Sequence record: PX104378.1
DNA from: a phage
Reading direction: 5' to 3' (one strand)
Length of the DNA: 64,000 nt
The notes under the pieces are model-generated. The model did no database searches and had not been told where the DNA came from. It saw only the letters and a list, made by a program, of their open reading frames with translations. Of this stretch, positions 1-64,000 are shown piece by piece; within the stretch, counting starts at the first letter, position 1, and each line of letters opens with the position of its first letter. The translations under genes and the position numbers were made by a program.

Positions 1-2235
1 GATGATGTTATCGTTACGCCTAAAAAGTTAAATGATTGTGTTGCTACCGAAGCCCGTCGTGGTGTGATGGAAATTGCAACTCAACATGAAACCAACGAAG
101 GTTTAGACGATACTCGCGCAATAACTCCTAAGAAGTTAGAAGAACGTCGCGCGTCCGAGGATCTTGCTGGTATTGCTGAAATTGTTCAGGTAGGCGGTAA
201 TGCTGCCGCTCGAAGGGGTGAAGCTGGCACGGGGATCTATAACATAAACGACCACGCTAAAATCGTTACTCCGCAAAACATCAACGAAGTCAAGGCGACA
301 GAAACTTCCCGTGGTGTTGGCTATCTGGCAACTGACGCGGAAGTGCAAGGGGCTACAGAATCAACCCCGCAAGATGCTTTACTAATCACGACTCGCACGC
401 TAACGAAACGTACTGCTACAGAATCGCGTACTGGTATCGCTGAAATTGCAACTCAGGAAGAAACAAACTTAGGTCAGAGTGATAACCATATCATCACGCC
501 TAAAAAGCTGCATACTCGCCGCGCAACGGAAACTTTACATGGTTTAGCAGAAATTGCAACTCAGCCGGAATTTGACGCAGGTCGTGACGATGCTCGCATT
601 TCTACCCCATTGAAGATTAAAACCTTCTTTGAGAATGCACAGCGTTTGAAAGTAGATCCGACTCAGGGGCTTAACCTTACTGGTGATTTGTGGCAAGGTA
701 TCATGATCAGCGGTCTGGATGCAACCGAAGACACAAAAGGTGTCGCTAAAGTTGCTACTACTCAGCTTACGGATGCTGGTCAAGATGATACTACAATCAT
801 TACTCCTAAAAAGCTGCAAGGCAAAAAGGCCACCGAAGGTAAAGAAGGTATTATCCGAGTTGGTACTCAAGCCGAAACCGTGGCTGGTGTACTGGCTAAT
901 GTAGCAATTTCTCCGAAGAACTTCAAATATGTTGTTCAGACAGAGGATACATGGAAAGCAACCGAAGCGCGTCGTGGTTTCTTGAAAGTTGCTACTCAGG
1001 AAAACTGTTTTGTTGGTGATAATCTGCAAGGTTCTACTCAAGAACTAGGAAACTACCAGCATGACGGAATTGCTGTTACCCCGAAAGGATTAAACTACGC
1101 ACTTGCTAATTTCTTACCTAAGATGGCAACCGCTCAGAATAGTTTGAAATTGGGTAACGTAGAGGCCGCTAAATGGGCGCGTAGAGACATTGACCAGACC
1201 ATTGAGAGCAATTACACGTTTAATAAAAACGTTAACGTGAAGGGCGATTTAGAGTGCTTAAAATCTGGTTCCTTTGAAACTCTGTTTGTGACTAAGAACT
1301 CGACTGATGATCCGAGTAATGGTCATCTGGTGTTGGGTGAGCGTGGAGTTGACGGTCACACCGGAATTACTCTGCACGGCACAACCGCATCGGAAGGTAT
1401 GGAAAACTCATGGTCTATTATCGTTGGTGGTACTGGAACAGCGCAAGTTGTTGATAGTGACGCTATCGCTTTCGGTAAAATCAATGATGGTGGATTCGTC
1501 GAGCATTACGCCTTTGCTATGGAACACAATGGCGACGCGGCAGCATATAGAGACTTTATTGCAGGTCGTAACCTGTATGCGAAACAAGGCGGTTTATACA
1601 TTGTTGACCAGTCTAATCCGGCAATGACTCGTTCCCCAGATGGTATGCTGAATATCGGTCACGGTGGAAGTGTTAATATCAAGGCAGGTTATCAAACGTT
1701 AACTACAGAGATCGCCGGACAGAAATATCAGATCGTACACGCAGGAAACGCAGACGAAGTTCTTAACCGTCAGTTTGTTAAGAATGCTGGCGATACAATG
1801 GTCGGTAAGCTGATTATGGATAATGCGCCTATTGTTTCTGTTAAGCATGAAGCTAGCGCGGCAACCGCTCCGGCAATCGGTAACATCGGTTTCTGGAATA
1901 TGCGCGTTACTACCCAGAACATCAAAGAAACTTATCCAGAGAAGAAAAACGGTACTCTGATGCAATGGGGTACTGACGAGGACGGGCTTACCCAGCTTTG
2001 GTCCCCTGATGGTACTCATAAACATTATATCCGTTCCGGTACTGGTGGTCAATGGACCGCATGGGGTGAAATTTACACCAAACAGAATAAGCCTACCGCT
2101 CAGGAAATCGGGGCAGTAGTTGCAGAAGGTGGTTTAATGAACTCTATGACGGTTCGTGATTGGATCAAAGTTGGTAATGTTAAAATCATCGCCAATAATC
2201 TGACTCGTACCGTAGACTTTATCTGGGAAGACTAA
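1..2235 (+). CDS. 34: Proximal long tail fibre subunit gp34 (5'-truncated by window edge)
   Basis: Frame-1 ORF open from nt 1 (>=744 aa, no start in window). Tandem ~45-aa repeats (ITPKKL..ATE..G[IL]AEIATQ), fibre motif YTKQNKPTAQEIGA; lies upstream of 35-36-37-t as in T4. Confidence 0.6.
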   Translation, partial: DDVIVTPKKLNDCVATEARRGVMEIATQHETNEGLDDTRAITPKKLEERRASEDLAGIAEIVQVGGNAAARRGEAGTGIYNINDHAKIVTPQNINEVKATETSRGVGYLATDAEVQGATESTPQDALLITTRTLTKRTATESRTGIAEIATQEETNLGQSDNHIITPKKLHTRRATETLHGLAEIATQPEFDAGRDDARISTPLKIKTFFENAQRLKVDPTQGLNLTGDLWQGIMISGLDATEDTKGVAKVATTQLTDAGQDDTTIITPKKLQGKKATEGKEGIIRVGTQAETVAGVLANVAISPKNFKYVVQTEDTWKATEARRGFLKVATQENCFVGDNLQGSTQELGNYQHDGIAVTPKGLNYALANFLPKMATAQNSLKLGNVEAAKWARRDIDQTIESNYTFNKNVNVKGDLECLKSGSFETLFVTKNSTDDPSNGHLVLGERGVDGHTGITLHGTTASEGMENSWSIIVGGTGTAQVVDSDAIAFGKINDGGFVEHYAFAMEHNGDAAAYRDFIAGRNLYAKQGGLYIVDQSNPAMTRSPDGMLNIGHGGSVNIKAGYQTLTTEIAGQKYQIVHAGNADEVLNRQFVKNAGDTMVGKLIMDNAPIVSVKHEASAATAPAIGNIGFWNMRVTTQNIKETYPEKKNGTLMQWGTDEDGLTQLWSPDGTHKHYIRSGTGGQWTAWGEIYTKQNKPTAQEIGAVVAEGGLMNSMTVRDWIKVGNVKIIANNLTRTVDFIWED

Positions 2236-2240
2236 TTAAA

Positions 2241-2257
2241 GGGGGGCGAAAGCCCCC
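2241..2257 (+). other. GC-rich stem-loop with GAAA tetraloop between 34 and 35
   Basis: GGGGGC-GAAA-GCCCCC directly after the 34 stop; no T-run. Confidence 0.4.
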
Positions 2258-2269
2258 TATGGGGTTATT

Positions 2270-3409
2270 ATGACACAAGAGATAGAATTACGCAATACTG
2301 GAATTAAGTTTGCGCATTTCGACGAAGACTCTGCGACATTTACCAGCATTTCAGAAAATAACTCTGTAATGTATAAACTTGAGGTTAGAGGATCTAATGC
2401 GGATTCTACCAAACCAGCAAGGATTAGATTTAATGGAGTGGAGATCGTTGGCACTGGCTATGAAAATGGCCTAAATTTTAAAGTTCTTACTCCAACTGGA
2501 CAATTACACGAAGAAAAGGTATTCTATGGTCGCGGTGCTGTTTTGGCAATGCGTGATTATCTTTCTTTGCTGAAAGGTGATTATATCATTGCGATGGCAA
2601 CGCATGGAGAATTGTTTGCAGATCCGGTAAGTGATGATGTATTCTCTAAGCTGGGATCTGTATCATTCCCGAATCACATTTTGTTACAGCAAATGCCTCG
2701 TGTATCATATGCAGCAATTTATTCTACGAAAATGGGTAAAATTGTTTGTGAGGGTATGCAAGCGACCCACGGGGAAGGGCAAGATTCATCTATACAAATT
2801 GAGAAAGTCTATGATACTATAGATGATCTTGCTATAACAGGAACACCACAACGATTTTTAGATTATCCGGTTGAGTATGTTAGCGAAGATGCCGAACATT
2901 TCGAGCTAATACAATGGCCTCATGATGAGATCAGCGCACCACTTGAAGATTTTAACATAAAGACAGGTGACAAACTATCAATATCTTTTGAATTGTTCCG
3001 TGATAGTGCCGCAGCCGCAGCCAACGTAACAGCGCGTTTCTATCACAACTACTTCACCGATGGACAATATAAAACTGGTGTTCGATACAATGCCAGCAAA
3101 AAAGATCAATGGGAAAAGTTTGAAGCCGTCTATACCGTACCGGAAGGAGTTGATAGTGTTACCACTGGTTGCGTTAGATATCCAACCAACTCAAATGAAG
3201 GTATTGTTAAAGTTAGAAACATACTAATAACGCCGATCAGTGGAGTTGTCAAAACGACTGGTCCTACTTCCTTTGGTGTTAACGGTGTTAGAACAACTCA
3301 CATTCAGGATAACGGTGATTTTACTAACCCTGTAATGAGTCTTCTTAAACTACCCAGAGACAATAAACATATCACATCCAACAACTTTAAAGAGTTCGAT
3401 GTTGATTAA
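2270..3409 (+). CDS. 35: Long tail fibre hinge protein gp35
   Basis: 379 aa (T4 gp35 372 aa); position between 34 and 36; followed by hairpin+T-run terminator. Confidence 0.55.
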   Translation: MTQEIELRNTGIKFAHFDEDSATFTSISENNSVMYKLEVRGSNADSTKPARIRFNGVEIVGTGYENGLNFKVLTPTGQLHEEKVFYGRGAVLAMRDYLSLLKGDYIIAMATHGELFADPVSDDVFSKLGSVSFPNHILLQQMPRVSYAAIYSTKMGKIVCEGMQATHGEGQDSSIQIEKVYDTIDDLAITGTPQRFLDYPVEYVSEDAEHFELIQWPHDEISAPLEDFNIKTGDKLSISFELFRDSAAAAANVTARFYHNYFTDGQYKTGVRYNASKKDQWEKFEAVYTVPEGVDSVTTGCVRYPTNSNEGIVKVRNILITPISGVVKTTGPTSFGVNGVRTTHIQDNGDFTNPVMSLLKLPRDNKHITSNNFKEFDVD

Positions 3410-3569: not shown

Positions 3570-3577
3570 TATAAATA
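3570..3577 (+). promoter_or_regulatory. T4-type late promoter (TATAAATA) upstream of gene 36
   Basis: Exact TATAAATA ~35 nt upstream of the gene 36 ATG. Confidence 0.6.
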
Positions 3578-5105: not shown

Positions 5106-5130
5106 AGCGGGGATTATCTCCCCGCTTTTC
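5106..5130 (+). terminator. Rho-independent terminator after gene 36
   Basis: AGCGGGGA-ttatc-TCCCCGCT followed by TTTTC. Confidence 0.6.
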
Positions 5131-5171
5131 TAAATAATATTATTCTAATAACCGTTTAAGGATTTTATAAA

Positions 5172-7940
5172 ATGGCAGATTTAAGCAGAATCCAATTTAA
5201 ACGCACTAGCACTAAAGGTCGTCGACCTGATGCTGGTACGATGAATCCGGGTGAGTTGGCGATCAACTTAGCCGACCAATATTTGCTTACTAAAAACGAC
5301 TCAGGTGCTATTATCAATTTAAGTTGTCCTCCGGTGTATGACCGCGATGTTACAATGGCTGGTAAAGTTAAAGGTAATAATTATATCTTAAGTAAAACCG
5401 CTAACTATCTGGAAGATCAGACAGCGCGAGATCTTAACTACTTTGGTGCTTTCCGTACCAATGGTCTTGATGGTTTTCTAGAACTAACGCTAAACGTTCC
5501 TCATTCTTCTGGTGTTCAGCATGGTCGAGGATTTACTTTCCAGTATGGTCACACTGGATCGCGAGTAGAAACCTATGGCTATAATAGAGAAGGTCAAAAA
5601 GCATTCAGCTATAAAATGTATCACGAAGGTGATAAACCAACTCCAGGAGAATTGAACGTTTATAGCAAACAAGAAGTAGATAGAATGTTTGTTAAGAACG
5701 TTAAACTTGCTACAGTTCCTGGTGATACAGTTGAAGGCTATTTTAAATTAGCAACTGCAATGATTCCACAAAATGGTCGTAGTGTATTTTTCCGTATTCA
5801 TGGTGGTAACGGATATAACGTTACTGCATACGATCAAGTTGATATTGTAGAAATTGTTATTCGCAGTGGAAATAATCGCCCTAAAGGTGTTAACGTTATT
5901 GCATATCGCCGAAATACAAACAAATCATTTGATGTTTTGGCTGTTAATACTTCTGGTGATAACTATGATATCTATGTGAAATATCAGCGTTACACTGATA
6001 ACGTTATTGTTGAATTTGGTAAAAGTGTTGATGTTAATCTGGTAGTTCATGACGTTCCAGATTTTGTTGCTGAACGTCCTGCTGGTGATAATGTTATTGG
6101 CGGTCGCGCGGTAACTCTTTTCAACACCGAAAATAAACGTGGTGTGTTGAGTTTTGACGATAACACACAAAATAGCTATGATATTGTTCACTTGAGTAAT
6201 GATAAAGGTACTGGACGAAAATATATTCGTAAATTCCGTAGCAACTATAATGAAATGATCTGGCATGAGACTGTTCAAGGTTCCAGTTATCGTCTGGCTA
6301 CTGGTAGCACTGATGCTCAGGAAATTATGACTATTGAATCTAGTAGCTCAATTGCTGGAACTCATAAAGGTAATATTATTTCTGGTCGTATGCTGTTAAA
6401 TGGCGGATCTAATGCCATTACACTACGCCGACCTGCTGGTCAATCTAATCATATTGCGTTTCAAGATAATCGTACTGGAGATATTACCCGTCAAGGATGG
6501 ATCGGTTATGCAAACGCCGATACTGACGTTTTTGAATGGTATAGTGATGTAGGTGGCAGTTCTATTCGTCAACATATCGACGGACAGATCGAATTTCAGA
6601 CAGGTAACATGAAGCGAGTTTATACCAACGGTCAATTCATTTCTTTATATGCTGATGGCTTCCGTACTGTATATGGTAACTATGGATCATGGTGGCGAAA
6701 TGACGGTAGTAACGTTTATCTGATGAGCACAAAATCAGGCGACGCTATGGGTCCGTGGAATACCTTTAGGCCGTTCATATACAGTCTCGCCAATGGAAAC
6801 GTTACTCTAGGTGGTAGCGATGCTGGCAATCATTTAATGCGTCTCAATAATGAAAATCGTCAAGTAGAAATAAATGCAACAACACATTTAGGGTCTCGAT
6901 TATATTGGGAACGTAGCGAAGGATCGGCATCTAGATTTTTTATTAAGAATTGGGGTAATGGAACTTCTCGCGCTCAAGTGTGGGAACTTGCTGACGAGAC
7001 AGGTTATCATGTATATTCTCAGCGAAACGACGCGGGTGTTCTTCAATTCCGTACTGCTGGTAATTTTGAGACTGGTGGTGATGCTCAAGTAAACGGGACT
7101 TTACGTGTCACCAATGTTCTTCGAACAGATAACCAAATTCAGATTTATCGCGATAACAACAAAGAACTCTGGTTTAAGGATGCTAATGGTACTAACCGTG
7201 GTGTTATCTGGGGTGATAGCACAGGTCAAATGCGCATTCGAAACTATAACAGCGGAGAATTTGACCATGTTTTCCAGACTGGTATGATTCGCTTAGAACG
7301 TGGGTATGCAAACGGTAGCGACCGTGGTTTGATTCGCGGAGAAGTACAAGGTGGTGCTTGGTCAGAATGGAAAACTCGCGCTGCTGGCTTATTGGTTGAC
7401 TGTCCAGCTGCTCAAACTTCCGCATATAACGTATGGAAAGCGACCAAATGGGGTTTAGACCACATCGCGGCAATGGGCGTTCATGTTCCTAGTGGTGTTA
7501 TTACTAATGCTATGGCACGTCTTCATATTCATACCACAAACTTTGACTTTAACGCATCTGGTGATTTCCAAGCTGGTCGCAATGGTAACTTTAACGATGT
7601 TTACATTCGCTCTGATGCTCGCCTGAAAATCAATAAGGAAGAGTATAAGGAGAATGCCACCGATAAAGTTAATCGCTTGACGGTATACACCTATGACAAG
7701 GTTAAATCTTTAACCGACCGTACTGTCATTGCTCATGAAGTCGGTATTATTGCTCAGGATCTTGAAAAAGAATTGCCGGAAGCAGTAACAACTTCTAAGG
7801 TCGGCGATCCTGATAAGCCAGAAGAGATCTTAACAATTTCTAACTCTGCTGTCAACGCTCTTTTAATTAAGGCGTTTCAGGAAATGAGCGAAGAATTGAA
7901 AGTCGTTAAAGCTGAACTAGCGGAACTTAAAAAGAATTAA
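5172..7940 (+). CDS. 37: Distal long tail fibre gp37 with C-terminal intramolecular chaperone (S74-type) domain
   Basis: N-terminus MADLSRIQFKR..GELAINL matches T4 gp37; C-terminal ~110 aa carry the SDxxxK autoproteolysis motif (YIRSDARLKINKEEY) typical of endosialidase/T5 pb1 chaperone domains. Confidence 0.8.
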   Translation: MADLSRIQFKRTSTKGRRPDAGTMNPGELAINLADQYLLTKNDSGAIINLSCPPVYDRDVTMAGKVKGNNYILSKTANYLEDQTARDLNYFGAFRTNGLDGFLELTLNVPHSSGVQHGRGFTFQYGHTGSRVETYGYNREGQKAFSYKMYHEGDKPTPGELNVYSKQEVDRMFVKNVKLATVPGDTVEGYFKLATAMIPQNGRSVFFRIHGGNGYNVTAYDQVDIVEIVIRSGNNRPKGVNVIAYRRNTNKSFDVLAVNTSGDNYDIYVKYQRYTDNVIVEFGKSVDVNLVVHDVPDFVAERPAGDNVIGGRAVTLFNTENKRGVLSFDDNTQNSYDIVHLSNDKGTGRKYIRKFRSNYNEMIWHETVQGSSYRLATGSTDAQEIMTIESSSSIAGTHKGNIISGRMLLNGGSNAITLRRPAGQSNHIAFQDNRTGDITRQGWIGYANADTDVFEWYSDVGGSSIRQHIDGQIEFQTGNMKRVYTNGQFISLYADGFRTVYGNYGSWWRNDGSNVYLMSTKSGDAMGPWNTFRPFIYSLANGNVTLGGSDAGNHLMRLNNENRQVEINATTHLGSRLYWERSEGSASRFFIKNWGNGTSRAQVWELADETGYHVYSQRNDAGVLQFRTAGNFETGGDAQVNGTLRVTNVLRTDNQIQIYRDNNKELWFKDANGTNRGVIWGDSTGQMRIRNYNSGEFDHVFQTGMIRLERGYANGSDRGLIRGEVQGGAWSEWKTRAAGLLVDCPAAQTSAYNVWKATKWGLDHIAAMGVHVPSGVITNAMARLHIHTTNFDFNASGDFQAGRNGNFNDVYIRSDARLKINKEEYKENATDKVNRLTVYTYDKVKSLTDRTVIAHEVGIIAQDLEKELPEAVTTSKVGDPDKPEEILTISNSAVNALLIKAFQEMSEELKVVKAELAELKKN

Positions 7941-7982: not shown

Positions 7983-8222
7983 ATGGTCTATAATATCGTC
8001 ATTGGTGCTTTGTCTAATTTCGGAATGAAACTATTGTCAAAGTTAATTAGTGAAAAGATGCTCACTAAAATTTTCTTCTACTGCGCTCGTCGTCTTGCGG
8101 CTTATACCAATACGCCAATTGATGATCGTTTCGTGGAAGAACTTTATAAGGAGTTTAATAAAGATCAGTCAGAAGATAGTAACGAGCAAGATAAACCTAG
8201 TGATAGTCAAGTACCTAAATAA
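7983..8222 (+). CDS. Hypothetical 79-aa protein between 37 and t
   Basis: Strong RBS AAGGAGAAACGGCT-ATG; hydrophobic N-terminus, acidic C-terminus; no recognisable homolog. Confidence 0.45.
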   Translation: MVYNIVIGALSNFGMKLLSKLISEKMLTKIFFYCARRLAAYTNTPIDDRFVEELYKEFNKDQSEDSNEQDKPSDSQVPK

Positions 8223-8255: not shown

Positions 8256-8912
8256 ATGCAAGTTTCTGAAAAAGAGAAAGACTTTGCTATCTCAAATGTC
8301 CTGCGCGCTATTTTCACAACTAAAAGCACGGAGTTGCTCGTACTTCGTGTTTTTGCTGCCGTCGTGTTGTCCATATTAGCATTTGTCGTTTATAGTAAAA
8401 ACGAGTTATTTGCGCTTTATAAAGAGACTCGTTATGAGACTTATGCTCACGTTCTCCAGGTAGAGAAAGACCGCAATTTTGATAATGCAGCACAGGAGCA
8501 GTTACAGATAGTTCATGTGTCGGCTGATGCCGATTTTTCTGCTGTTTTTAGTTTTCGTCCGAAAAACCTAAACTATTTTGTTGATTTGGTGGCATATGAA
8601 GGAAAGCTACCGCATACAATTGACGAAAAGAATTTAGGCGGATTCCCTATCAATAAAACGAGTGAAGAATATCGTAGGCATCTTTTAGGTAAATCCTATT
8701 TTACTGATAAAGATTTCCAGTATATTCCATCGAGGGAGAAAAAATTAGAGAATATCGATATAGGGTTTATGTATTCTTGTCCTATATTCAATCTCGATAA
8801 TGTCTATTCTGGTAGTATCGCCATTGCATGGAGGAATAAACCAGATATTGACATTGAGAATTTAGATACTCTTTGCAATCAATCTGCCAGAATCCTCGGA
8901 AGGATCAGATAA
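8256..8912 (+). CDS. t: Holin t
   Basis: 218 aa, identical length to T4 holin; conserved blocks LEQLQIVHVSADADFSAVFSFRPKNLNYFVDLVAYEGKLP and MYSCPIFNLDNVYSGSIAIAWRN; C-terminal RILGRIR. Confidence 0.9.
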   Translation: MQVSEKEKDFAISNVLRAIFTTKSTELLVLRVFAAVVLSILAFVVYSKNELFALYKETRYETYAHVLQVEKDRNFDNAAQEQLQIVHVSADADFSAVFSFRPKNLNYFVDLVAYEGKLPHTIDEKNLGGFPINKTSEEYRRHLLGKSYFTDKDFQYIPSREKKLENIDIGFMYSCPIFNLDNVYSGSIAIAWRNKPDIDIENLDTLCNQSARILGRIR

Positions 8913-62694: not shown

Positions 62695-62722
62695 ATTATA
62701 GCACTATGATTTTCATTGTCAA
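62695..62722 (-). promoter_or_regulatory. Early promoter with conserved 5'UTR cassette
   Basis: TTGACA-16nt-TATAAT GCACACATACCAACTAAGGAGAATCAAAG-ATG. Confidence 0.5.
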
Positions 62723-62726
62723 CAAC

Positions 62727-62760
62727 TAAAAACAAAAAAGGCTATCCAGAAGGATAGCCC
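62727..62760 (-). terminator. Rho-independent terminator after the glycine-rich gene
   Basis: Minus-strand GGCTATCC-ttct-GGATAGCC followed by TTTTTTGTTTTT. Confidence 0.65.
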
Positions 62761-62766
62761 ATAAAA

Positions 62767-63552
62767 TTACACGCGAGCACCGTAGATCGTGCCTACTTTA
62801 TCCCAGCGTGGAGCATTACCAGTAACAGCCTTACCAGCCGCACCACCAGAGTGAACAGTTCCTCCAGTACCACCTTGAATATATGAAGATTTGCCAGCAG
62901 ATCCCAAATCTCCACCATTTCCTCCATAGTGAACCCCAGAAACAGTGCCTTTACCTGGGGCAGAAATTGTACCAGCAGATGCTGCCGCTGCGCCGCCTCC
63001 TGCCTTACCAGCCGCACCAAATGGACGGCCTCCGCCGCCGCCAAATATCATATCCATTTGAGGGAAAGGATGGTATCTAGCACCAGCACCGCCACCACCA
63101 CCACCACCAATAATACCATTATTGTTTATTCTTAAACGAGTTCCAATTCCGTTATTTATTGCATTTCCTCCTGCTCCGCCAGCAGAGTTACTTCCGCCAT
63201 TTCCTCCCCGACCTAATACATGAACACCAGAGTTAATAATGAGTGTTACATATTCGTTTGTTAGTGAGCTAGGGAAATCAAGACAAGGAACGCCAGTAGA
63301 ATGGGAAACAATATTACCGGTGATAGTAATTACTACCGGAGTAGATCCTTGTGCTTTCATCCAGTTAATAAGAGTGTCTTTATTGTAAGAGTTACTAGCG
63401 CCAATGCTATAATGAATCTCTTTAGAACGTCCGACCATCGCTGACATATACGCCGGACGACCTAAGCGTACAGCTTGCATTGCGGCGCTCATCCACCGTT
63501 GACCAGTCTCAGCAACAGCCGATGATCCGACCCAACCTGCTTTAATTGCCAT
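62767..63552 (-). CDS. Glycine-rich repeat protein
   Basis: 261 aa; C-terminal ~150 aa dominated by GGxGG/GGNGG runs; followed by hairpin terminator. Confidence 0.55.
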   Translation of the reverse strand: MAIKAGWVGSSAVAETGQRWMSAAMQAVRLGRPAYMSAMVGRSKEIHYSIGASNSYNKDTLINWMKAQGSTPVVITITGNIVSHSTGVPCLDFPSSLTNEYVTLIINSGVHVLGRGGNGGSNSAGGAGGNAINNGIGTRLRINNNGIIGGGGGGGAGARYHPFPQMDMIFGGGGGRPFGAAGKAGGGAAAASAGTISAPGKGTVSGVHYGGNGGDLGSAGKSSYIQGGTGGTVHSGGAAGKAVTGNAPRWDKVGTIYGARV

Positions 63553-63606
63553 AAAGTTTCCTCACAAGAAAAGCCCCATTTAAGGGGCATTGATTAATAA
63601 TATTAC

Positions 63607-63828
63607 TTAGATGACCTCTGCTTCACCATTCAGGAAGAAAGACCATGTTTTGTTAGGACAGCGAAGCGCCCATGATTCAGCAGTTTTAACACCAGCTTCG
63701 AACAATTGACGGCTGGTTACTTTAGCCATACCATCTTCGATGGCAACGTTTTCAATAATCATCGGGTACTTAGCGCCACGCATGAAACCGAAGCCAGCGG
63801 AAGATTTGATAATTTTAACAGTTGCCAT
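63607..63828 (-). CDS. Paralog-family protein (KIEIID-type)
   Basis: 73 aa; MATVKIIKSSAGFGFMRGAKYPMIIENV resembles 61008..61265 and 61284..61481. Confidence 0.5.
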   Translation of the reverse strand: MATVKIIKSSAGFGFMRGAKYPMIIENVAIEDGMAKVTSRQLFEAGVKTAESWALRCPNKTWSFFLNGEAEVI

Positions 63829-63867
63829 TTTTGATTCTCCTAGAAAGTGTATCTCGTTTCGATGTGT

Positions 63868-63899
63868 GTATTATGCAATAACACCGGATCACTGTCAAC
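63868..63899 (-). promoter_or_regulatory. Early promoter with conserved 5'UTR cassette
   Basis: TTGACA-~20nt-TAATAC ACACATCGAAACGAGATACACTTTCTAGGAGAATCAAAA-ATG. Confidence 0.4.
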
Positions 63900-64000
63900 A
63901 CTTTCTAAGAAAAATTTTAAATTAATCGAATATAGCCCAGAATTTCAGCACCTTTAGCCAGTCCTAAAACTTCCCATTCAAGGTCGCCGTAGTCATAATT

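Follow-up and report, generated by a model that had tools for sequence, protein, structure and literature searches.

The long tail fibre encoded in the window, the 64,000-nucleotide stretch of phage DNA (PX104378.1) analysed here, most probably ends in an ordinary T2/S16-type tip in the RB49-like (Krischvirus) layout, with a self-cleaving chaperone on gp37 and a displaced gene for the gp38 adhesin, a reading to which a probability of roughly 90% is assigned. It is based on both domains and both genes, an invariant Ser/Lys dyad, the fold of the chaperone, synteny that is conserved among relatives and the way variability is distributed among them, and the whole fibre-tip arrangement is already known. 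Extrapolating cleavage, gp38 docking and receptor binding to this phage, in part from its relatives, gp37 would be made as a 922-aa precursor in which residues 814-922 (Peptidase_S74) assist folding of the trimeric beta-helical distal fibre. The chaperone would then cut itself off at Arg813/Ser814 via a Ser814/Lys819 dyad, exposing the end of mature gp37, on which one gp38 monomer would dock through its conserved N-terminal helical domain. Finally, the hypervariable loops of gp38, held by glycine-rich motifs, would bind the host receptor and set the host range.

The window belongs to a Krischvirus, one of the RB49-like relatives of T4. Over 25-kb stretches its DNA is 95-97% identical to that of JK32, GEC-3S, RB49 and ELT4, and the phage collection contained no identical record. 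Comparisons within the genus were made among nine Krischvirus, namely the window, JK32, RB49, Brandy49, E26, GEC-3S, JEP8, ECD7 and Delraymugoa. The window pairs a gp38 of the Brandy49 type with a short gp37 of the JK32/GEC-3S type (922 aa; the RB49, E26 and ECD7 proteins have 979-981 aa). Its gene 37 is 96.9% identical in DNA to that encoding JK32 gp37, and the protein matches phrog_1699 ('long tail fiber protein distal subunit', E=1.6e-180). The gene and its parts are as follows:

5172..7940, + strand: gene 37, long tail fibre distal subunit precursor (922 aa plus stop; ORF list, translation)
5172..7610, + strand: predicted mature gp37 (aa 1-813; region-wise identity, Pfam Gp34_trimer)
7608..7613, + strand: predicted autocleavage site Arg813/Ser814, DVYIR^SDARLKI (alignment to S16 and T2-like sites)
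7611..7937, + strand: intramolecular chaperone domain (Peptidase_S74, aa 814-922, 109 aa; PF13884, dyad, fold)

An S74-type chaperone signature in the last ~110 aa of gp37, at 7600-7940, had been proposed in an earlier note on this DNA, together with a Pfam check, and profile, dyad, fold and alignment to the S16 site all bear out both the domain and its position. PF13884 covers aa 814-873 over its full length (profile positions 1-58 of 58) with an E-value of 1e-11 and 45.4 bits (cut-off 22), a match far beyond chance. The segment NDVYIRSDARLKINKEEY (aa 808-825) contains Ser814 (nt 7611-7613) and, in S-x4-K spacing, Lys819; both residues, along with V810, R813, D815 and L818, do not vary among 34 homologues, each with a PF13884 domain. 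The homologue search, made with aa 700-922, gave 37 matches, mostly fragments, which suffices for an alignment and not for a census. Across Krischvirus the chaperone domain is 96-99% identical and is the best-conserved part of gp37, implying strong selection. An AF2 model of the gp37 C-terminal region reached a pLDDT of 79.5, with blocks of the chaperone domain mostly at 86-95 and two at 78-79. Foldseek against the PDB returned three intramolecular chaperone structures, each with a probability of 0.98-1.0: the MyRF ICA (7DC3, 1.7e-5), endosialidase (3GW6, 1.3e-3) and GA-1 gp12 (3GUD, 1.4e-2); beyond these, no match fell below E=0.4. For the mature gp37 tip, Foldseek did not recover the S16 gp37 structure (6F45_A), presumably since the trimer is interdigitated and cannot be compared with a model of a single chain. 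Together, these observations support the view that gp37 ends in an intramolecular chaperone of the S74 type that has the Ser/Lys dyad.

The position of the predicted cut follows from relatives. When the C-terminal 222 aa of gp37 were searched alone with phmmer, and only then, a match to S16 gp37 (6F45_A) surfaced, starting at aa 805, in which SDARLK aligns to SDRRIK. S16 gp37 is reported to release this domain by autoproteolysis once the trimer has formed; the cut, at DLNVS^SDRRIKK, removes the last 113 residues and exposes the gp38 docking surface, and the T2-like cleavage site is DVYIR^SDGRLKI (PMC7917993). RB49 gp37 has also been stated to have a self-cleaving chaperone (PMC9569957). Because DVYIR^SDARLKI aligns with the S16 cleavage site, the window gp37 is predicted to cut itself between Arg813 and Ser814.

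The adhesin is encoded 54.8 kb downstream of gene 37, on the opposite strand:

62767..63552, - strand: gene 38, T2/S16-type tail fibre adhesin (261 aa plus stop; Pfam, PDB match, synteny)
63208..63552, - strand: gp38 N-terminal part (aa 1-115), with the gp37-attachment domain (Gp38_N, aa 1-40; conserved)
62770..63207, - strand: gp38 C-terminal glycine-rich motif and hypervariable loop region (aa 116-261), predicted receptor-binding part

Among the ORFs of the window it alone has multiple glycine-rich motifs, and its product has seven Gly-run motifs. Pfam assigns GP38 (PF05268, 2.8e-70) to aa 45-261 over the full profile and Gp38_N (PF21721, 4.3e-18) to aa 1-40. The match to S16 gp38 (PDB 6F45_D, 2.8e-50) is full-length, aa 1-259 against 1-247, and a GFP-gp38 fusion (9V85) is matched at 2.6e-31. 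All eight relatives have gene 38 at the same displaced locus, and the syntenic gene is annotated '38' or 'tail fiber adhesin' in RB49, JK32 and ECD7. The displacement is a known, already published Krischvirus arrangement: g38 of RB49 was described as 'displaced elsewhere', its place being taken by a small ORF (Trojet 2011; PMC3157838), and gp38 was placed about 55 kb downstream of gp37 in Krischvirus (bioRxiv 10.64898/2026.04.02.716166). Adjacency of genes 37 and 38 is a usual rather than a defining feature of T2/S16-type gp38, and the two genes are not adjacent here. The claim in the earlier note that there is no gp38 adhesin gene thus holds for the slot next to gene 37 and fails for the window, which contains a full-length gene 38; the note had named as counter-evidence a homologue of gp38 at another genomic site that serves as the adhesin, and the gene seen here, its shared locus in the eight relatives and the literature on RB49-like phages supply it.

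The genes directly downstream of gene 37 are in the order that had been noted earlier, gene 37, a 79-aa ORF and holin t:

7983..8222, + strand: 79-aa ORF 'Dc5' (phrog_402, unknown function), in the slot held by gene 38 in T2/T4
8256..8912, + strand: holin t (PF11031 Phage_holin_T, E=1.7e-61; phrog_860 holin)

The small ORF, annotated Dc5 in RB49, JK32 and ECD7 and 96-100% identical across Krischvirus, is unrelated to gp38 and is not a gp38 homologue. It has no match in the Pfam or NCBIfam libraries, while its homologues carry a precomputed PF26925 tag. Its AF2 model consists of three helices at a pLDDT of 58.7, a quality insufficient for fold searching, and a hydropathy that peaks at 1.3 over 19 aa is too close to the border to justify a transmembrane call. 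That Dc5 travels with S74 domains was ruled out, as the Felix O1 fibre 5' of a Dc5 homologue is without an S74 domain.

Variation in gp38, which is 81-99% identical among Krischvirus, is concentrated in its C-terminal part. Residues 1-115 are 92-99% identical among the nine phages; residues 116-261 show 68-74% identity and indels relative to JK32, RB49, GEC-3S, E26, JEP8 and ECD7, and the variable loops sit between conserved Gly runs in the nine-phage alignment. The same region is 100% identical to that of Brandy49, with two substitutions across the entire gp38, and a Brandy49-like recognition pattern is therefore expected. Brandy49 was reported to have the broadest host range of its set and to be O-antigen-independent (PMC9569957).

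In the S16 structure, gp38 caps the end of mature gp37, which is not exposed (PMC6851490), and gp38 plugs into gp37 with three tryptophans at the apices of its helices alpha1-3. Residues W20, W36 and W62 of S16 gp38, probably the tryptophan 'prongs' that anchor it to gp37, align to W20, Y35 and T60 in the window protein, with W64 four residues past T60. On this assignment two of the three prongs would not be conserved, and the gp37-gp38 interface may differ in detail. It is also conceivable, though unlikely, that the Krischvirus joint uses anchoring residues other than those of S16, with Y35 and W64 replacing two tryptophans. The gp38 N-terminus did not visibly co-vary with the tip of gp37 in the nine-phage alignment; JK32 and GEC-3S, for example, have identical gp37 tips (aa 751-813) and differ at gp38 residues 4-5 (IK vs SS).

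In mature gp37, Pfam finds Gp34_trimer at aa 434-537, and region-wise identity among the nine Krischvirus delimits a mosaic shaft module at aa 376-750. Within it, aa 551-700 show 31-38% identity and a 52-56-aa indel relative to five of the eight relatives, and aa 701-750 are 47-54% identical to one clade. Because both segments are strongly variable, variability alone does not speak against a gp37 contribution to host range. The following residues, aa 751-813, are 70-100% identical among the nine phages and, after the S16 structure, probably form the gp38-docking end. Gp34_trimer and Peptidase_S74 are the only Pfam matches in gp37, with none to gp37_C or gp37_trimer, both of which are present in the Felix O1 fibre in the same scan. 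Pfam likewise gave no binding domain in aa ~551-750, and a PDB sequence search with whole gp37 recovered gp34-like shaft repeats only.

Findings in related phages point to gp38 as what sets the host range. It is the receptor-binding protein of RB49-like phages (PMC9569957), and the receptor used by Krischvirus is determined by the gp38 variant (PMC12032242). Host-range mutants of RB49 carried E230K or E230K+Y231S in gp38, and none mapped to gp37 (Efimov 2022; PMC9569957).

An unlikely view, though the best placed of the alternatives, is that gp38 is the main adhesin and the gp37 module at aa ~551-750 is a second determinant, making, for example, lateral contacts with O-antigen or LPS. The two module types of aa 551-700, with the low identity and indel given above, do not track the gp38 type and appear to be exchanged independently of it. 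Moreover, recognition of several O-antigens by the small gp38 was called 'counter-intuitive' in the RB49 paper (PMC9569957), and a 2026 preprint reported porin-specific k-mers in Gp37 as well as Gp38 of Straboviridae. If true, a second determinant in gp37 would help to explain how RB49-like phages handle several O-antigen types with one small adhesin. Against it, shuffling of shaft modules, common in T4-like fibres, is mostly interpreted as structural mosaicism (PMC3157838), no binding domain was recognised in the module by Pfam, and the known RB49 host-range mutants lie only in gp38 (PMC9569957).

The earlier note had located specificity in the gp37 tip itself (aa ~700-813), which would bind the receptor as in T5 pb1 or an endosialidase tailspike, without a separate adhesin. 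That proposal is now very improbable, even though the S74 domain exists, gene 37 is not followed directly by a gp38-like gene and aa 701-750 are fairly variable among relatives. An intact gene 38 is present in the window at a locus shared by all eight relatives, the RB49 mutations map to gp38 (PMC9569957), and the S16 gp37 end is capped by gp38. In addition, near-identical or identical gp38 proteins occur with differing gp37 modules: GEC-3S and E26 differ by one gp38 residue in the loop region, and the window and Brandy49 have identical gp38 loops. An uncleaved S74 domain, kept on the virion fibre as an inactive remnant, is scarcely to be expected, given a dyad and surrounding residues that are invariant in the homologues and the high conservation of the chaperone; judging from S16, a retained domain would also block the surface on which gp38 docks.

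Returning to gp38 as the adhesin, its displaced gene is flanked by two DNA elements:

62695..62760, - strand: terminator-like hairpin followed by a perfect sigma-70 promoter, a PeSL-type element, just 3' of gene 38
63573..63588, - strand: terminator-like hairpin immediately 5' of gene 38 (GCCCC-TTAAAT-GGGGC, then TTTTCTT)

In the first, which resembles PeSL elements as defined previously (PMC4122927), the hairpin occupies 62760..62739 and the promoter, TTGACA-16-TATAAT, 62722..62695. No late promoter TATAAATA with at most one mismatch was found in the 350 nt upstream of gene 38, so co-expression with gene 37 is an assumption. Gene 38 may be read early, from a sigma-70 promoter at 63898..63870 and through the upstream hairpin, or late, from a promoter of unrecognised type.

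For host-range prediction or engineering, the gp38 loops (62770..63207, - strand) would be the target rather than the gp37 tip. More generally, the lack of an adhesin gene beside the fibre gene of a T4-like genome does not mean that the adhesin is absent, as gene 38 can move into a hyperplastic region.

Among known systems, T4 has a homologous fibre position and N-terminal parts, and holin t likewise lies downstream. In T4, however, the receptor-binding tip belongs to gp37 and gp38 serves as a chaperone, whereas the window gp37 is without gp37_C or gp37_trimer. Endosialidase (K1F endoNF), GA-1 gp12 and T5 pb1 share with the window gp37 the PF13884 domain, the Ser-Lys dyad, the C-terminal placement after a trimeric beta-helix and the fold. 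In these proteins the processed fibre or spike itself binds the receptor, whereas cleavage in the window phage would prepare the surface on which a separate adhesin docks. The fibres of S16 (PDB 6F45) and of the T2/T6 type have in common with the window the autocleaving C-terminal chaperone of gp37 (cleavage being predicted here), the S-D-x-R-[IL]-K motif, and a gp38 monomer built of an N-terminal attachment domain and a domain of polyglycine and hypervariable loops. The window differs from S16 in that genes 37 and 38 lie apart and in that mature gp37, ahead of the cut, has no detectable similarity to its S16 counterpart. RB49 and the other Krischvirus share both the 37/Dc5/t gene order and the displaced gene 38 locus, and the 54.8 kb that separate the two genes here agree with the published 'approximately 55 kb'.

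A scan of all six frames of the window for glycine-rich motifs returned a single ORF, gene 38, on the opposite strand from gene 37:

62767..63552, minus strand: gene 38, 261 aa; Pfam GP38 2.8e-70 (full profile), Gp38_N 4.3e-18
5172..7940, plus strand: gene 37, 922-aa ORF; long tail fibre distal subunit, phrog_1699, E=1.6e-180

Its product aligns end to end with gp38 of Salmonella phage S16, a receptor recognition protein (PDB 6F45 chain D, 2.8e-50). All eight relatives examined carry gene 38 at the same locus; RB49, JK32, ECD7 and others have it annotated as '38' or 'tail fiber adhesin'. Genes 37 and 38 lie 54.8 kb apart in the window, and Krischvirus gp38 has been placed 'approximately 55 kb downstream of gp37' (2026 preprint, bioRxiv 10.64898/2026.04.02.716166). 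For RB49, Efimov et al. state that gp37 has a self-cleaving chaperone and that a gp38 monomer attaches once this chaperone is removed, and they show that host-range mutants carry E230K or E230K plus Y231S in gp38 (PMC9569957); the receptor used by Krischvirus is set by the gp38 variant (PMC12032242). The combination of chaperone and displaced gp38 is thus already described for this genus. The earlier note had reported no gp38 adhesin gene and placed receptor specificity, as probable, in the gp37 tip. A gp38 homologue elsewhere acting as the adhesin was what the note itself named as refuting it; a full one is encoded in the same window, and the role of gp38 is documented in RB49, including by the mutations, so both claims fall.

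Megablast matched the gene 37-to-t region to 84 phage records, the best being RB49-like Krischvirus over the entire query (JK32, 96.9%; GEC-3S, 95.9%), and two 25-kb stretches of the window were 95-96% identical to ELT4, RB49 and others, with no identical record. Because the closest records are Krischvirus and none is identical, the phage is a new isolate within a genus that is well studied.

Genes for gp34 (partial), gp35 and gp36 precede gene 37. Next after it come Dc5, an ORF of 79 aa, and then holin t (PF11031, E=1.7e-61), the downstream order that had been read from the sequence. The late-promoter motif TATAAATA has its sole exact copy in the 64 kb 34 nt 5' of the gene 36 start, fewer than chance would give (1 observed vs 5.9 expected), and TCTAAATA lies 36 nt 5' of the gene 37 start (sites for the two motifs: 3570-3577 and 5129-5136, plus strand). 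In phage Brandy (MZ504876.1), gene 37 (L003:301-3230) carries two overlapping CDS annotations (301-1938; 1884-3230); the split reflects a frameshift that is either genuine or due to an error in sequencing.

The S74-type signature noted at the gp37 C-terminus was correctly located: it spans aa 808-825 and includes both Ser814 (nt 7611-7613) and Lys819. The profile check proposed for it was positive: Pfam Peptidase_S74 (PF13884) matches aa 814-873 far beyond chance (E=1e-11; 45.4 bits, gathering score 22 bits). PF13884 was present in 37 of 37 database homologues of aa 700-922, and V810, R813, S814, D815, L818 and K819 were invariant in a 34-sequence alignment. An AlphaFold2 model of aa 700-922 had a mean pLDDT of 79.5, most 10-residue blocks of its chaperone part scoring 86-95 and two 78-79. 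Its significant Foldseek matches in the PDB were all intramolecular chaperone structures (MyRF ICA 7DC3, 1.7e-5; endosialidase 3GW6, 1.3e-3; GA-1 gp12 3GUD, 1.4e-2), the next hit having E=0.4. One database protein of 303 aa, from an assembly of E. coli (P0020), contains both gp38 domains and PF13884, aligning as a gp38-like N-terminus and a chaperone-domain C-terminus; the likely explanation is chimerism or misassembly of an ORF whose source is a T2-like prophage or a contaminant contig.

Aligning the window's gp37 and gp38 with their counterparts in eight Krischvirus genomes located the variable regions.

Identity to the window proteins by region
gp37 aa 814-922 (chaperone): 96-99%, highest conservation in the protein
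gp37 aa 751-813 (mature gp37 end): 70-100%
gp37 aa 701-750: 47-100%
gp37 aa 551-700: two module types, 31-38% with a 52-56-aa indel vs five relatives, 77-99% vs JK32, GEC-3S and JEP8
gp38 aa 1-115 (N-terminal part): 92-99%
gp38 aa 116-261: 68-74% vs most relatives, 100% vs Brandy49; variation in loops between conserved glycine runs

The distal gp37 shaft is mosaic at aa 376-750 (6297-7421), and the aa 551-700 module types yield two forms of the protein, of 922 aa and 968-981 aa. These modules assort independently of gp38 type: gp38 is almost identical in GEC-3S and E26 (one residue differs in the loop region) but their gp37 modules are different, and the window and Brandy49 have identical gp38 loops but different gp37. 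Window gp38 is 99.2% identical to that of Brandy49 (only A14S and H84Q differ), and its gp37 is nearest to JK32 and GEC-3S (~99% at aa 551-700). The window is a recombinant combination of a JK32/GEC-3S-like gp37 and a Brandy49-like gp38. The variability pattern fits a conserved joint, formed by the gp37 end and gp38 N-terminus, bearing an adhesin head that can be exchanged. The same pattern leaves slight room for an effect of the gp37 shaft module on host range, which we consider very unlikely.

Gene 38 is surrounded by small early-type ORFs on the minus strand (62695-63900) and is bracketed by two hairpins:

63588..63573, minus strand: terminator-like hairpin 5' of gene 38
62760..62739, minus strand: terminator-like hairpin 3' of gene 38, then a perfect TTGACA-16-TATAAT promoter

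Because the downstream hairpin is followed by this promoter, the element is of the PeSL shuffling type. No TATAAATA late promoter with up to one mismatch was found upstream of gene 38; the nearest promoter-like site there is of sigma-70 type (63898..63870).

Dc5 belongs to phrog_402, a PHROG of no assigned function, and searches of Pfam, NCBIfam and PHROGs linked it to neither gp38 nor any chaperone. Its database homologues are tagged PF26925, which gave no match in the local Pfam scan, and its structure model was poor (pLDDT 58.7). The family has the conserved core SE..(x)FF..A....T.T..DD.F:

7983-8222 of the window, plus strand: Dc5
L017:2992-3186, L018:3004-3213 and L020:2501-2686: family members in other phages

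In Krischvirus, Dc5 lies before holin t; homologues at 31-48% identity lie directly 3' of the tail fibre gene in Felix O1 (Felixounavirus) and, in two Vibrio phages, directly 3' of a GH108 endolysin. Coupling of Dc5 to the S74 domain is ruled out because the Felix O1 fibre, when scanned, lacked that domain. A possible role in lysis is hinted at, since Dc5 precedes holin t and follows endolysins elsewhere.

In the proposed pathway, gp37 would be synthesised as a precursor, and its S74 domain would nucleate folding of the trimeric beta-helix and then cut at Arg813|Ser814 via the Ser814/Lys819 dyad. The end thus exposed would be capped by one gp38 monomer, attached by its N-terminal helical domain, and the gp38 loops would bind the receptor. 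Of this scheme, the domains, dyad, fold and synteny were observed here, and the steps after synthesis are modelled on work with S16, T2 and RB49. In S16, cleavage is reported at DLNVS^SDRRIKK, removing the last 113 residues of gp37 and exposing the gp38 docking surface, and T2-like Yersinia phages have DVYIR^SDGRLKI (PMC7917993). In a phmmer alignment, window gp37 aa 805-920 matched the fragment of S16 gp37 in 6F45, with SDARLK over SDRRIK. Because the window carries DVYIR^SDARLKI, its gp37 is predicted to be cut at Arg813|Ser814, freeing 109 residues. Three tryptophan prongs of S16 gp38 plug into gp37, and W36 and W62 are, by our inference, two of them. They align with Y35 and T60 of window gp38 (aa 20-64; 63361-63495, minus strand), in which residue 64, one helical turn past T60, is a Trp; only W7 and W20 are kept between the two proteins. 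Because of these replacements, the gp37-gp38 joint of Krischvirus may differ in detail from that of S16.
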